This document shows positions 60,571-64,000 of a stretch of 64,000 bases of DNA, in pieces. Under the pieces are notes generated by a model that saw only the letters and a program-made list of their open reading frames with translations, ran no database searches and was not told where the DNA came from. Source of the DNA: Kiloniellales bacterium (GTDB taxonomy: Bacteria > Pseudomonadota > Alphaproteobacteria > Kiloniellales > JAKSDN01); contig JBFJPL010000010.1 of the NCBI GenBank assembly GCA_041617155.1, positions 197 through 64,196 on the forward strand. Reading direction: 5' to 3'. Position 1 is the stretch's first letter, and the number at the start of each line of letters is the position of its first letter. Both the position numbers and the translations under genes were made by a program.

Positions 60571-61104
60571 TCAGCGGACCGGCCAGAGACCGCGCAAGTG
60601 CGCGATCAATGCCTTTCTTTGGCCCTGGTCCAGCTCGGTGTGGGCCCCCAGGTTGGGCAACGCCGGCCAGCCGGGATCATCGAAGGAAACGCCGCCGAAC
60701 GCGCGGGGCTCGGCATATCTGGGCAGCACATGGAAATGGACGTGAGGGTCGACCATCATGAGCATGAGGTAGTTGATCTTGTCGTAGGCGAAGGCCTTGC
60801 CCAGGGTGGTTTCGATATCGGCGGTCACGGTACCGAGGTTGTCGAACGCCGGCTGGCCGATGGCCGCAAAGGCCGTTGCCGGTTGCTTGCAGGCCAGGAC
60901 CAGGGCGCCCAGCGTGGCTTGCTGCGGGCGCAAGAGGATTACCCAGTGGTCGTAGTCCGCCAGCAGCGTCTCGGGATAGCCGAACTTGGCGATGGTCTGG
61001 TTCGCGGCCGGTGACGTGGCGGTTGGCTCGGACAACGGATCTCTCCAAACGAATGTCGGAACGTCGGCCGCCGGTCTATGCGCCGCTGTGCGGACGACGG
61101 CCAA
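60571..61104 (-). CDS. HIT-family nucleotide hydrolase/transferase
   Basis: 177 aa (TTG start, N-terminus uncertain). The histidine triad is HVHFHVLPR. Confidence 0.75.
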   Translation of the reverse strand: MAVVRTAAHRPAADVPTFVWRDPLSEPTATSPAANQTIAKFGYPETLLADYDHWVILLRPQQATLGALVLACKQPATAFAAIGQPAFDNLGTVTADIETTLGKAFAYDKINYLMLMMVDPHVHFHVLPRYAEPRAFGGVSFDDPGWPALPNLGAHTELDQGQRKALIAHLRGLWPVR

Positions 61105-61307
61105 ATCTAGCCGTCACGGCCGCCAATCGCAAAGCCCATGCCGTGGCGGCATTTGCATTCGCCGCCAAATCGATTATGTACCCACGGCAGTAAATCGAAG
61201 TGACCGGCGGCCTGGAGCGCCAGCGCGGCGCCCGCCTGCCGCGACAGCTTTGGAGTTCGGCGTTGGTGCAGACAAGCGATTCGGCGCGGGGTAGAGCGCC
61301 CGGCCTT

Positions 61308-62453
61308 ATGGTGATCGGCCAGTGTGATACCAAGATCTGGGGATTGGCGCCGGGCGAACGCCATATCCGCGCCTTCGCACGGGCCGGCGTATCCTCGCTC
61401 GTCAAGACCAGCGAGCCGGCTCCGGCCGAGGGTTCCGTGGTCATGATCCGGGCCGAATACGTGATCGCTGAGGAACTGGTCCGCGCCCTGGTGGAAACGC
61501 CCGGCGTGATCCTGGCGGTCGAGGGGCGGCGCGCCGGCGAGAAGCTCGCCGTCGCGGCCCACGCGGAGGCGGCCGATGCCGAGGCGGTCGCCGCGTTCCT
61601 GACGCGCGGCGCCTTCGGCCCGGACGATTCGGCACCCAGGGGCTTGCGCGTTCTGGGACCTGGCGAAATCGGCTCCCAGTACAATCAGATGCTGCGCAAG
61701 CGGATGGTTCCCTTCGTGCTGTCGCTGGCCGACCAGCCGCTCGCCGAGATCGAGAAAACGACCTTCAGCGCGGTCTACAAGGGCTCGACCGACTTCGTCA
61801 CCAAGTGGTGCTGGCCGTTGCCCGCGCGCTGGGCCACGCGCTGGGCGGCCGCCTGGCACATCACCCCCAACACGATCACGACGGTCAGCCTGGTGTTCGT
61901 CGTCCTGGCGACCTATCTCTTCGCCCAAGGTGATTTTCTGGCCGGCGTCGCGGCGGCCTGGTTCATGACCTTCCTGGACACGGTCGACGGCAAGCTGGCC
62001 CGGGTGACACTGACCTCCTCCAAGTGGGGCAATCTCTACGACCACGGCATCGATCTGATCCACCCGCCGTTCTGGTGGGGCGCGTGGTGGTTCGGCCTCA
62101 AGGGCGTGAGCGATCCGGCCCTGCAGTCCTCGCTCGACCTGGCGCTCTGGATCATCCTGGTCGGCTATGTCGCCGGCCGCCTGTTGGAGGGCGTTTTCCT
62201 CTGGAGCTTCAAGATCCAGACCCATATCTGGCGCCCGGTCGACCACTACTTCCGTACGATCACCGCCCGGCGCAATCCCAATCTGGCGATCATGATGGTC
62301 GGTGCGCTGTTCGGCCGCCCCGATCTCGGCTTCCTGGCGGTCGCCGGCTGGACCGTGTTCTGCCTGCTGTTCCATGCCGTGCGCGTCCTGCAGGCGCTGG
62401 CCGTCCACACGCGCGGCGGGCGGATCAGCTCCTGGCTGAAGGAGCCGGGCTAG
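61308..62453 (+). CDS. CDP-alcohol phosphotransferase with about 190-aa N-terminal cytoplasmic domain
   Basis: Part of ORF 61200..62453 (GTG) with ATG at 61308. The full family signature D-x2-DG-x2-AR...G-x3-D-x3-D is present as DTVDGKLARVTLTSSKWGNLYDHGIDLIH. The C-terminal half is multi-TM. Confidence 0.85.
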   Translation: MVIGQCDTKIWGLAPGERHIRAFARAGVSSLVKTSEPAPAEGSVVMIRAEYVIAEELVRALVETPGVILAVEGRRAGEKLAVAAHAEAADAEAVAAFLTRGAFGPDDSAPRGLRVLGPGEIGSQYNQMLRKRMVPFVLSLADQPLAEIEKTTFSAVYKGSTDFVTKWCWPLPARWATRWAAAWHITPNTITTVSLVFVVLATYLFAQGDFLAGVAAAWFMTFLDTVDGKLARVTLTSSKWGNLYDHGIDLIHPPFWWGAWWFGLKGVSDPALQSSLDLALWIILVGYVAGRLLEGVFLWSFKIQTHIWRPVDHYFRTITARRNPNLAIMMVGALFGRPDLGFLAVAGWTVFCLLFHAVRVLQALAVHTRGGRISSWLKEPG

Positions 62454-62723
62454 GAGCCTGTCCGAGTATTGGTCATGGACTGCATCGGTCGGACAGACGC
62501 GAGGGTTAGGAGCGGAGGCGCGGGCGATGCCGTGTGCATCGGCAAGCCTTCGCGACGCGGCACTCGCGTCTGTCCGGCCGACCCGGAGGGCCGCGTTTTC
62601 AAGGCCCTGGGCCGTCGTCCGGCACCGCTTGCGATGCGCACGGCATCGCGGCGCGGCACCGTCCTAGCCCAAGGCCTTGAAAACGCGGTGCAGCCCGTGA
62701 CCAATACTCGGATAGGCTCCTAG
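62450..62723. mobile_element. 274-bp MITE-like element with 29-bp terminal inverted repeats
   Basis: The left end is CTAGGAGCCTGTCCGAGTATTGGTCATGG. The reverse complement of the right end is CTAGGAGCCTATCCGAGTATTGGTCACGG, giving 27/29 identity. Internal nested inverted repeats are present. It has TA (or CTAG) flanks. Confidence 0.65.
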
Positions 62724-62730
62724 GGAAAAG

Positions 62731-63441
62731 ATGTCGGGCGACCAGCCACCAGACGAATCCGCAGGCGGGCCGGCGCGGCCCGTGGCGGTGGTCTTCGACC
62801 TCGACCGGACGGTCACCAAGTGGGGCACCTTCACGCCGTTCCTGCTGTTCGCGGCACGCGGCCGGCCCTTGAAATTTCTTCTGATCGGGCCGCTTCTGGT
62901 CGCCGCCCTGGGCTACAAGCTGGGCCTGATCAGCCGCGGGCGACTCAAGGAAATCATGCTCACATCCGTGCTCGGCGGGGCGACGCGCGACGAGGTGGCG
63001 GCGCTTTCCGCGGCCTTCGTCGAACGGCGCGTAAACTGCGGCTTGCGGCCGGGCGCGCTGCGGGCCATCGCCGAACATAAGGCCAAGGGCTGTTATTTGA
63101 TCCTTGCAACGGCGAGTTTCGAATTCTATGTAGAGCGCTTGGGGCATCAGCTGGGCTTCGATAGGGTTGTCGCCACCCGGTCTCTTTGGGACGAGGGAGG
63201 GCGTCTCGTCGGACGGATCGATGGCGAGAACTGCTACGGGGCGGAAAAGCTGAGGCGCTTGGAAGAAGCTCTGCCCGATTTGAGCGCACGTTATCGGGTG
63301 GTCGCCTATTCCGACAGCCACGCTGATGAGCCGCTGCTCCGTTGGGCGGATATCGGCATTGCCGTGAATCCGACACGAAAACTACGCAGACGTGCAAAAG
63401 CGGGGAATTTCGAGCTTGTGGACTGGAACAGCACAGCGTGA
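62731..63441 (+). CDS. HAD-IB family phosphatase (SerB-like)
   Basis: 236 aa with motif I VVFDLDRTV, ILATAS, and motif IV YSDSHADEPLL. Confidence 0.85.
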   Translation: MSGDQPPDESAGGPARPVAVVFDLDRTVTKWGTFTPFLLFAARGRPLKFLLIGPLLVAALGYKLGLISRGRLKEIMLTSVLGGATRDEVAALSAAFVERRVNCGLRPGALRAIAEHKAKGCYLILATASFEFYVERLGHQLGFDRVVATRSLWDEGGRLVGRIDGENCYGAEKLRRLEEALPDLSARYRVVAYSDSHADEPLLRWADIGIAVNPTRKLRRRAKAGNFELVDWNSTA

Positions 63442-63552
63442 TCGCCAACGGCTGCGCCGCCGCCGTTCCGGTCACAAAGTTTACACAACTTAATCAACCC
63501 TTAACCCGCCACACCCCATCTATTCGACCCCTAGCGATATTGGATAGGCAGA

Positions 63553-64000
63553 ATGAAAGCAGTGATCTTGAGTGCGGGCCAGGGCTCTCGCCTGCTGCCC
63601 TTGACCGAAGACCGTCCGAAATGCCTGCTTCCGATCAACTCGTCCCGCCTGATCGAGCTTCAGGTCCAGAACTTGGTCGCTTGCGGCATCGACGAAGTCG
63701 CCGTGGTCGTCGGTTTTCGGGCCGCCGCGGTCGAGACGTTCCTCGACGTCTTCCGGCGCGCCGGGCTGGCCATCCGTACCCTGTTCAATCCCTTTTTCAA
63801 TGTCGCCGACAACCTGGCGAGCTGCTGGATGGCGCGCGATGAAATGGACCGGGATTTCATTCTGCTGAACGGCGATACGCTGTTCGAGCCGGCGGTGCTC
63901 GACGAGCTGCTGAACGCGCCGCCGGCGCCGGTGACCTTGGCGATCGACCGCAAGGCGGCCTATGATTCCGACGACATGAAGGTGCGGCTCGACGGCTCCC
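63553..64000 (+). CDS. Nucleotidyltransferase (cytidylyltransferase-like, LicC/IPCT-type), 3' end beyond window
   Basis: Hand translation from ATG at 63553 gives MKAVILSAGQGSRLLPLTEDRPKCLLPI...ILLNGDTLF. This is the G-x-G-x-R-L...K NTP-transferase signature. The frame stays open to the window edge. Confidence 0.85.
   Translation, partial: MKAVILSAGQGSRLLPLTEDRPKCLLPINSSRLIELQVQNLVACGIDEVAVVVGFRAAAVETFLDVFRRAGLAIRTLFNPFFNVADNLASCWMARDEMDRDFILLNGDTLFEPAVLDELLNAPPAPVTLAIDRKAAYDSDDMKVRLDGS

Follow-up and report, generated by a model that had tools for sequence, protein, structure and literature searches.

The closest precedent for the element described here is MITEPye1 of Paracoccus yeei, an IS1182-derived MITE whose partner, ISPye18, belongs to the IS1182 family (PMC11578231). 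Like the present element, it is a non-coding alphaproteobacterial MITE with terminal repeats resembling IS1182-family ends, and it is intergenic, with a predicted long stem-loop possibly affecting co-transcribed genes (PMC11578231). MITEPye1 is 159 bp long, with 18-bp repeats, 4-bp direct repeats, 1–3 copies per chromosome and a folding energy of −48 kcal/mol (PMC11578231), whereas the present element has 268 bp, repeats of 35–38 nt, two inner hairpins and about −205 kcal/mol. Compared by description, it also differs in its TA duplication and in its frequent docking at stop codons. The ISMac2-derived MITEs of Methanosarcina acetivorans are likewise short and non-autonomous with an IS1182-family partner, and they have 160–169 bp, 25–26-bp repeats and 0–4-bp direct repeats (PMC3852290). 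They differ in being archaeal and shorter and in having the partner in the same genome, and neither a stop-codon association nor a Y-shaped fold is described for them (PMC3852290).

Outside the IS1182 family, the Correia elements (CREE/nemis) of Neisseria are also palindromic MITEs that insert at TA, with a length of 100–160 bp (PMC2649163). They are often co-transcribed with their neighbours; RNase III binds their hairpin RNA, and its cleavage or protection alters the expression of adjacent genes (PMC2649163). However, they are unrelated in sequence and have no known autonomous partner. They also contain promoter elements together with an IHF site (PMC2649163), neither of which was detected in the present element. 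MITEPsy1 of Pseudomonas syringae is another small repeat-bounded element, derived from ISPsy2 of the related IS5 family, and its CTAG or YTAA target is the same YTAR-type site (PMC3189936). It differs in its size of 100 nt, its 4-bp duplication, its IS5 partner and the experimental observation of its transposition (PMC3189936).

In the 64-kb stretch of DNA analysed here (the window), positions 62453–62720 are read, with a probability of roughly 85%, as a copy of an unnamed MITE family with termini of a subgroup of IS1182-family ISs, inserted at the TA of a stop codon. IS1182-derived MITEs as a kind are already known, while this family is apparently unnamed; the repeat sequence was looked for in the full text of papers and no paper was found.

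Boundaries and Termini of the Element

The element is non-autonomous, of IS1182 type, and its 268-bp core (GGAGCC...GGCTCC, 62453–62720, + strand) was delimited from the alignment of 12–13 copies. The canonical core of the family has this same length, with variants of 162–302 bp, and the G+C content over 62450–62723 is 67.5%. The left terminal inverted repeat (62453–62487, + strand) starts with the 23 nt GGAGCCTGTCCGAGTATTGGTCA, a sequence that IS1182-family ISs carry unchanged at their left end, and the right one (62686–62720, − strand) has one mismatch within this 23-nt core. When the bases on the TA side are included (62450–62487 against 62686–62723), 34 of 38 positions match, and recomputing the pairing of 27 in 29 bp given by the initial annotation returned the same count. 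The 23-nt core occurs at only two places in the window, with none expected from 100 shuffles, and an nhmmer profile of the element copies found one copy in the 64 kb.

With 268 bp, the element falls under the limit of about 500 bp for a MITE and has no real coding capacity, and it shows the terminal inverted repeats, short target duplication, copies at multiple loci and empty sites of such elements. A blastn search against 72,556 plasmids and a terminal-repeat scan of viral contigs gave no match. Matches to the repeat pattern in Prevotella/Bacteroidaceae were discarded, being a conserved but unrelated stretch outside any repeat context.

Insertion at the Stop Codon of the Phosphotransferase Gene

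Upstream of the element lies a gene of the CDP-alcohol phosphotransferase family (61308–62453, + strand, Pfam PF01066), and downstream its operon partner, coding for a HAD-IB family hydrolase (62731–63441, + strand, PF12710, TIGR01490). The 381-aa phosphotransferase product from the ATG start is on record exactly; an alternative GTG start at 61200 would give 417 aa, for which an exact database look-up returned no record. As first described, the TAG at 62451–62453, within the left repeat, ends the phosphotransferase reading frame, and the HAD gene starts 8 nt past the right repeat (62731 versus 62723). The proposal that the element supplies the stop codon was not sustained, since the element contributes only the G, T and A being part of the target. 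The protein ends in ...SWLKEPG followed by the stop, and 11 orthologues end at the same residue, so on this comparison the C-terminus is ancestral and the element gives no new stop position.

The initial annotation had proposed comparing the orthologous junction, and this comparison revealed both the empty sites and the ancestral end ...SWLKEPG. Three syntenic loci (L059/L060, L061 and L062, with 90%, 90% and 82% amino-acid identity) carry no element and read ...GAGCCGGGC-TGA followed by 5–12 nt and the HAD ATG. All three have TGA at the stop codon and divergent spacers, and the TAG pre-insertion allele is not among them. The spacing between the two genes is 277 nt here versus 5–12 nt in the relatives. 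Excision of 62453–62722 in silico gives GGGC-TA-GGGAAAAGATG, with the stop at the orthologous codon and a 7-nt spacer, and the reconstructed empty junction reads ...GAGCCGGGCTAGGGAAAAGATGTCG. Together with the many copies at other loci, these empty sites bear out the idea of a MITE-type insertion inside the operon. Conservation at this junction in distant relatives, which had been named beforehand as evidence against a MITE, was looked for and not found.

The flanks, first noted as TA (CTAG), are read as C-TA...TA-G, with the left TA copy at 62451–62452 (with G62453, the TAG stop) and the right one at 62721–62722, located by flank comparison of MITE and IS copies. Most ends of the 10 tabulated MITE copies have TA next to them, with a point change at three ends (L041, L048), and in 17 IS copies TA is constant at all ends. 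The outer flank bases vary among the MITE copies, with C, T or A on the left and G or A on the right. Since TA is shared while the outer bases are variable, the target is read as TA within YTAR with a 2-bp TA duplication. A 4-bp (CTAG) duplication was rejected, since the inner G/C is constant and the outer bases are unequal on the two sides (TTAG/CTAG, ATAG/CTAG, TTAG/CTAA). At a CTAG target the 2-bp and 4-bp readings are indistinguishable, and for published IS1182 members 4-bp direct repeats were reported (PMC3281130, PMC11578231), versus the 2 bp read here.

In the proposed mechanism, an IS1182-family DDE transposase acting in trans would insert the element at the TA of CTAG (YTAR) and duplicate TA. 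Here, the target TA was the first two bases of the phosphotransferase TAG stop, and since the element begins with G, as both of its ends do, the insertion regenerates TAG. The HAD gene keeps its start codon and a 7-nt leader of its own, and both proteins are unchanged. This target rule makes insertion into a TAG stop silent and lets such elements build up inside operons of high-G+C genomes.

Copies at Other Loci

The expectation of further copies was borne out by 14 other independent loci with DNA, in alphaproteobacterial MAGs and metagenomes, where the element lies between unrelated genes with 77–94% identity, and by 105 clusters of mis-called proteins. Half of the copies were found via their ORFs, so the sample is biased.

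At 8 of the 15 loci, TA+G serves as the stop of a gene, Pfam-verified or called (the window, L027, L041, L047, L050, L063, L065 and L076), and at L076 it is shared by two convergent genes. Shadow ORFs given by a crude GC3 gene caller at L047, L050 and L033 were set aside, as Pfam favoured the + strand genes. Of the YTAR sites in the window that are non-coding or at a stop, a crude count places 10 of 68 at stops, and docking at 8 of 15 departs from chance with p = 0.0005–0.02, depending on the baseline. This frequency would be explained by the scarcity of TA-containing targets in a genome of 67% G+C, where many of them lie at stop codons and insertions there, being harmless, would persist.

Predicted Fold and Effect on the Operon

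The three inner inverted repeats reported earlier all exist, but their nesting is not concentric. At minimum energy the fold is a Y, in which the repeat stem bears two side-by-side hairpins. Each arm of the GATGCC.../...GGCATC repeat forms the self-complementary tip of one hairpin. In the minimum-energy fold, the left inner hairpin spans 62485–62581 and the right one 62591–62688 (both + strand), with compensatory changes across copies at 16 of 31 and 6 of 37 pairs, respectively. Folding energies are −207 kcal/mol (z = −13.3) for the + strand and −198 kcal/mol (z = −14.0) for the − strand, so the very stable structure anticipated in the case of co-transcription agrees with a predicted fold of about −205 kcal/mol, far beyond chance. 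Across copies, 94% of cells are paired; compensatory changes affect 32 of the 111 pairs, versus 7.1 ± 2.1 in shuffles and 3–8 in slid controls. The Y-shaped fold is therefore kept by compensatory changes.

The + strand folds better in 11 of 15 copies, with a mean difference of only 4 kcal/mol, and this asymmetry was rejected as a sign of RNA-level selection. The count of G-U versus A-C pairs was given no weight, since the structure was derived from the + strand and the count is thereby biased. The direct repeat D1 (62542–62563, + strand; second copy at 62638–62659, 96 nt away) is a probable recombination point giving a 172-nt form with one hairpin. A short copy at L048 consists of positions 3–114 plus 189–272.

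The phosphotransferase and HAD genes, with their spacing of a few nucleotides in the relatives, are probably translationally coupled there. In the predicted fold, the 38-bp basal helix ends 8 nt ahead of the HAD start codon, and the element would uncouple HAD translation and probably lower it. By analogy with the Correia elements in Neisseria, the spacer RNA may be a long double-stranded substrate of RNase III type. In such operons, a hairpin of roughly 270 nt would part genes that were once translationally coupled. This locus is itself ordinary, with both proteins intact and nothing pointing to a new mechanism.

Possible Adaptation to Operons

The strong compensatory change and the 9:1 orientation bias suggest that the element is more than neutral junk and are unexplained by a simple selfish-DNA account. 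One alternative is that the MITE is retained as useful, either as an oriented Y-hairpin serving as an insulator, processing or stability element of the operon, or through an ATG frame that bridges ribosomes and preserves coupling. We consider this unlikely, although several observations speak for it. An inner hairpin, which is no terminus for transposase binding, is preserved by compensatory changes. Relative to the gene at whose stop it lies, the element points the same way in 9 of 10 cases (p = 0.02). Eleven of 13 aligned copies have an ATG in the left repeat, where the right repeat has ACG in most, and of 12 full copies, 10 have no stop in the 90-codon frame (270 nt) between the left and the right TAG. 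In addition, a second class of terminal inverted repeats is found with a similar inner module.

Against retention for use, the frame shows no codon-position bias and its openness is within chance, with 1.2 stop-creating changes expected and none seen (P = 0.29, an underpowered comparison). The folding asymmetry between strands is weak, and the sample biased towards copies with ORFs also weighs against it. Compensatory changes could also be given by template switching in a quasi-palindrome or by a need for the hairpin in transposition.

A family adapted to operons, combining TAG docking, a compensated Y fold and one preferred orientation, is thus a tentative model with low odds. In the preferred orientation, the conserved ATG of the left repeat opens a frame closed by the right-hand TAG, shortly ahead of the next gene. 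If the family were adapted, the element would work at the transcript level, either as a module for processing or insulation or as a bridge for translation. The sequence at L048 2291–2560, with a similar inner module and different termini, would then make the hairpin cassette, and not the transposon ends, the conserved functional unit. If the orientation bias and the hairpin covariation hold, the family would offer a tractable case for MITE co-option as operon-internal RNA modules.

The extremely stable fold and the strong covariation could also be those of a structured RNA dedicated to this head-group operon, such as an attenuator, a riboswitch-like leader or a small RNA, rather than of mobile DNA. 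This reading is very improbable, as the same junction is empty in three relatives and the element lies between unrelated genes at the 14 other loci. Moreover, no Rfam match at E ≤ 1 was obtained for 61000–64000 on both strands, and the two strands fold nearly equally well. Scans of 62200–62900 for sigma-70 promoters and intrinsic terminators gave no promoter-like or terminator-like site. An intrinsic terminator or REP-type hairpin was likewise rejected, as the element has no terminator-like site and instead presents transposon-type termini and a TA duplication.

Assignment to the IS1182 Family

The initial annotation had attributed the TA flanks to the IS630/mariner type. TA flanks with a TA duplication are indeed the hallmark of IS630/Tc1-mariner-type MITEs, which would be moved by an IS630-family transposase, and they are present here. 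However, the transposase is of the IS1182 family in every element found with these termini that carries one. An IS of 1575–1589 bp, of which a Bryobacterales MAG contains at least 17 copies, is identical to the MITE at 23 of 23 positions of its left end, and its 442-aa transposase scores 367 bits with NF033551 (IS1182; cutoff 270) and also matches PF05598, PF01609 and PF13751. A second IS (L044) has the same termini, again with 23 of 23 positions at the left end, and an IS1182 transposase only 52% identical. Annotated IS1182 elements of Roseomonas and Bradyrhizobium plasmids end in cCTAGGAGC...GCTCCTAGc; these alphaproteobacterial-plasmid elements share the CTAGGAGC... termini and the CTAG flanks. 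No IS630 element with these ends was found in the genome, metagenome and viral scans, and the IS630 attribution was abandoned as highly unlikely. From the shared termini, the mobilising enzyme would be an IS1182-family transposase.

Neither the 64-kb window nor any contig bearing the MITE yielded an IS1182 transposase, and the ISs with identical termini belong to another phylum or to an unassigned soil contig. The interior of the MITE is unrelated to those ISs; since only the terminal 26–27 nt match, it is not a simple deletion derivative of them.

Pseudo-ORFs and Assembly Breaks

The look-alike 84-aa pseudo-ORFs noticed earlier on both strands are present, one on the + strand (62469–62723, from a TTG, with an ATG at 62475) that begins in the left repeat and ends with the right-hand TAG, and the other on the − strand (62450–62704). 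Neither has a Pfam match. A coding test across copies showed no codon-position bias (substitutions 77/91/69 and variable sites 39/42/41 at the three positions), and the − strand frame has no coding signal. A real small protein of 82–84 aa, for which the ORF of conserved length called in 105 protein clusters could speak, can be dismissed almost entirely, given the even substitutions, the lack of a Pfam domain, termini that are translated terminal repeats, an equally open opposite strand and the absence of the ORF at orthologous loci.

In annotation, the element is thus repeatedly mis-called as a hypothetical protein of 82–84 aa. At operon junctions, it also causes breaks in the short-read assemblies of these uncultured alphaproteobacteria, and a model of the element would mend both problems. 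In short-read data of the same organism, contigs end within the element from either side, and several Logan contigs begin exactly 30 nt into the right repeat.

Sequence and predicted fold of the element

The 268-bp palindrome at 62453-62720, between the CDP-alcohol phosphotransferase and HAD genes, is a genuine MITE, clearly defined and of IS1182 lineage, that was silently inserted at a stop codon inside the operon. The sequence of positions 62450-62723 reads CTAG-GAGCC...GGCTC-CTAG, with inverted repeats at both ends that agree in 34 of 38 bases (27 of 29 for the segment originally quoted). Within the 64-kb window the element is present as a single copy, and the 23-nt core of the repeat does not occur again there or in any of 100 shuffles. 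The phosphotransferase ORF (Pfam PF01066) stops at TAG 62451-62453, the HAD-IB hydrolase gene (PF12710, TIGR01490) starts at 62731, and 84-codon ORFs are open on each strand of the element.

The predicted RNA fold of the region has an energy of -207 kcal/mol (z = -13.3), and that of the opposite strand -198 kcal/mol (z = -14.0). It is Y-shaped, with a terminal-repeat stem carrying two adjacent hairpins (62485-62581 and 62591-62688), whose tips resemble each other and are marked by a 22-nt direct repeat at a spacing of 96 nt. The observation made in the initial annotation was thus confirmed, including the repeat match, the stop position and the 84-aa ORFs on both strands, with one correction: the interior repeats, described there as nested, form hairpins side by side rather than concentrically.

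Empty sites and other copies

Close orthologues of the phosphotransferase were found, and three syntenic loci were recovered (90%, 90% and 82% amino-acid identity), sharing the AMP-binding enzyme, ABC exporter, 154-aa protein, phosphotransferase, HAD and nucleotidyltransferase genes. Comparison of this junction in relatives had been proposed initially as a search for an empty site, and in 3/3 loci the element is absent: the sequence runs ...GAGCCGGGC-TGA and reaches the HAD start codon 5, 7 or 12 nt further on.

The element is present at 14 other independent loci, recovered with a 20-nt repeat pattern in one scan each of genome and metagenome collections, plus look-ups of mis-called proteins. 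Full 268-bp copies were found in the database loci L033, L041, L047, L057, L063/L064, L065-L071, L074/L075, L076 and L077, copies of 301-302 bp, in which 33-34 nt are inserted at the tip of the left hairpin, in L027 and L040, and shorter ones in L050 (214 bp), L048 (172 bp) and L055 (162 bp). These copies are 77-94% identical to the one in the window, and the named hosts are uncultured Alphaproteobacteria or "Proteobacteria" MAGs. In addition, a protein search with the plus-strand pseudo-ORF returned 105 clusters of 82-84-aa "hypothetical proteins", which begin and end with translated terminal repeat sequence (MDCIG... and ...VTNTRTGS).

Contigs assembled from short reads of the window organism stop within the element, from the left as well as from the right. 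Several in Logan have their first base exactly 30 nt inside the right repeat, the behavior of a repeat that exceeds k-1 in length. Across 23 recorded contigs the HAD protein is 100% identical; the places shown start inside or just after the element in 10 of 10, and these samples showed no empty allele. The element is mobile DNA and not a locus-specific feature.

Several variants were also recorded. The 301-302-bp subfamily comes from different sources (L027 3458-3763 and L040 1482-1786), and its common insertion (GGCTCCGCCGGAGGCTTCGCCGAGGCGAGTGCCG...) makes the hairpin longer. Terminal repeats that are solo or truncated occur at L020 2537-2566, L054 355-385, L039 2390-2556 / L046 1162-1328 and L051 2972-2999, along with a weakly related element in which just the left repeat and a portion of the left arm are shared; all of them are remnants or additional subfamilies with these termini. 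The called protein P0062 (136 aa) joins a PF04365-domain ORF to 74% of the MITE pseudo-ORF, which suggests another host ORF running into a copy.

Transposon family

The same repeat-pattern scan revealed at least 17 near-identical copies of a 1575-1589-bp IS in one Bryobacterales (Acidobacteriota) long-read MAG (L013-L037, e.g., L015 5930-7514), with C-TA...TA-G flanks in every copy. Its left end, GGAGCCTGTCCGAGTATTGGTCA, is identical to that of the MITE, and its right end is GATACTCGGACGGACTCC. The 442-aa product contains PF05598, PF01609 and PF13751, and its score for NCBIfam NF033551 ("IS1182 family transposase") is 367 bits, above the cutoff of 270. A second IS of about 1.5 kb, on the soil-metagenome contig L044, has the same termini on both sides and a transposase only 52% identical. 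Annotated IS1182-family elements on Roseomonas and Bradyrhizobium plasmids, at about 47-48% protein identity, end in cCTAGGAGC...GCTCCTAGc. The assignment to IS630/mariner, made initially because of the TA flank, is not supported, since the ISs recovered with these termini all belong to the IS1182 family and no IS630 element with such ends was found in any scan.

The MITE and the ISs have common sequence only in the terminal 26-27 nt, and none of the contigs with a MITE copy yielded a transposase. The identical left terminus in an Acidobacteriota IS and an alphaproteobacterial MITE implies cross-phylum spread of the IS lineage. MITEs of IS1182 origin are already known, namely the 159-bp MITEPye1 of Paracoccus yeei (PMC11578231) and ISMac2-derived ones in Methanosarcina acetivorans (PMC3852290). 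The present family is apparently unnamed; a full-text literature search found its repeat sequence in no paper.

Target site and stop codons

TA flanks most MITE ends, with point changes in L041 and L048. One base further out there is variation (C/T/A at left ends, G/A at right ends), and the element itself always begins with G and ends with C. This pattern fits a TA duplication of 2 bp within YTAR and argues against a 4-bp duplication, the two readings being indistinguishable at a CTAG site. Repeats of 4 bp are listed for published IS1182 members (PMC3281130, PMC11578231).

Removal of 62453-62722 gives GGGC-TA-GGGAAAAG-ATG, a reconstructed empty site with TAG at exactly the relatives' TGA codon and a 7-nt spacer within their 5-12-nt range. 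The phosphotransferase C-terminus ...SWLKEPG is common to orthologues down to about 70% identity. Since this terminus is shared and the stop lies at the orthologous codon, the element made no new protein end; it contributes only the G of the present stop, and the initial statement that it supplies the stop codon was overstated.

The flanking TA plus the element's G form a gene's stop codon at 8 of 15 loci: the window, a TANGO2-family gene (L027), mntP (L041), a GGDEF gene (L047), pcm upstream of a LysM/M23 peptidase gene (L050), a biotin-carrier gene upstream of the oxaloacetate decarboxylase beta subunit (L063), radA upstream of cvpA (L065) and both convergent genes, HalD-like and OYE-type oxidoreductase, at L076 1672-1943. 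In the last case the overlapping stops were one CTAG; the MITE entered at its TA, leaving each gene with TAG. Of three near-misses, those at L077 and L048 have the element 2 and 5 nt past a stop. In the third, at L074 2480-2752, the element really does supply a C-terminal tail and stop: the hydantoinase A (hyuA) ORF extends nine codons into the left repeat and ends at a TGA inside it, with the hydantoinase B start 12 nt past the element.

A crude census of YTAR in the window, with 66.6% G+C and 41 ORF-based genes, counted 98 sites (30 coding, 10 at stop codons, 58 elsewhere). The 8/15 exceeds this baseline (p = 0.0005-0.02, depending on the baseline setting) and is, qualitatively, what target preference plus loss of gene-disrupting insertions is expected to give.

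Orientation of the copies

In a small sample, partly ascertained through ORF calls, copies with a gene stop at or next to an end lie in window-like orientation to that gene in 9/10 cases (exception L065; two-sided p = 0.02), as do 6/6 copies found by repeats alone, and the left repeat carries ATG in all but 2 of 13 aligned copies, with ACG there in most right repeats. Since the ends are nearly identical, insertion chemistry should be orientation-indifferent. Together with the left ATG and a second element in L048 (2291-2560), which has other termini and a similar two-hairpin interior, the bias keeps an adaptive reading alive, at low probability.

L048 1-2560 is a two-component operon with three elements. 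A solo terminal repeat (5-31) adjoins the response-regulator start, and its ATG may be the start codon. The 172-bp one-hairpin MITE (759-930) separates the regulator gene from the kinase gene, and the 265-bp Y-shaped palindrome (2291-2560; termini TGGTCTAAATCAGACATATGGTACC...) lies directly past the kinase TAG stop.

Conservation of the fold and coding tests

Covariation was evaluated on a 12-copy alignment with the minimum-energy structure of the window copy itself. Standard pairs fill 94.2% of cells, and compensatory (two-sided) changes occur in 32/111 pairs, compared with 7.1 ± 2.1 when shuffled and 3-8 with partners slid. Ten fall in the terminal-repeat stem, where the need for both ends to fit a single transposase leads one to expect co-variation. 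Another 16 fall in the left inner hairpin, a non-terminal part whose stems in L065, L074 and L076 are each different and internally complementary. The fold has therefore been maintained in the element's lineage. Selection on single-stranded DNA or RNA, or template switching within quasi-palindromes, could account for it; across copies, both strands fold nearly equally well.

The pseudo-ORFs are not genes, since substitutions at codon positions 1/2/3 number 77/91/69 and no domain was found in them. In most copies no stop interrupts the 270-nt frame between the left and the right TAG, a degree of openness not beyond chance.

Likely consequence at the operon

The phosphotransferase-HAD gap is 5-12 nt in the relatives, a spacing typical of translationally coupled operon genes, versus 277 nt in the window. 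No promoter-like or terminator-like site was found in or next to the element, so that read-through transcription is the default expectation. In such a transcript a basal helix of 38 bp would end 8 nt short of the HAD AUG, which should hinder independent HAD initiation. The hairpin RNA of Correia elements is a target of RNase III, which binds it and either cuts or protects it (PMC2649163); by analogy, the element RNA could also act as a processing site.

As for the surrounding genes, the phosphotransferase domain covers only residues ~221-325 of the 417-aa ORF, and its conserved N-terminal ~180 residues (61200-61740) have no Pfam match. The gene is followed by that of the HAD-IB phosphatase and, beyond the window end (L001), by two nucleotidyltransferase genes and an epimerase gene, while the ABC exporter and AMP-binding enzyme genes are divergently transcribed.
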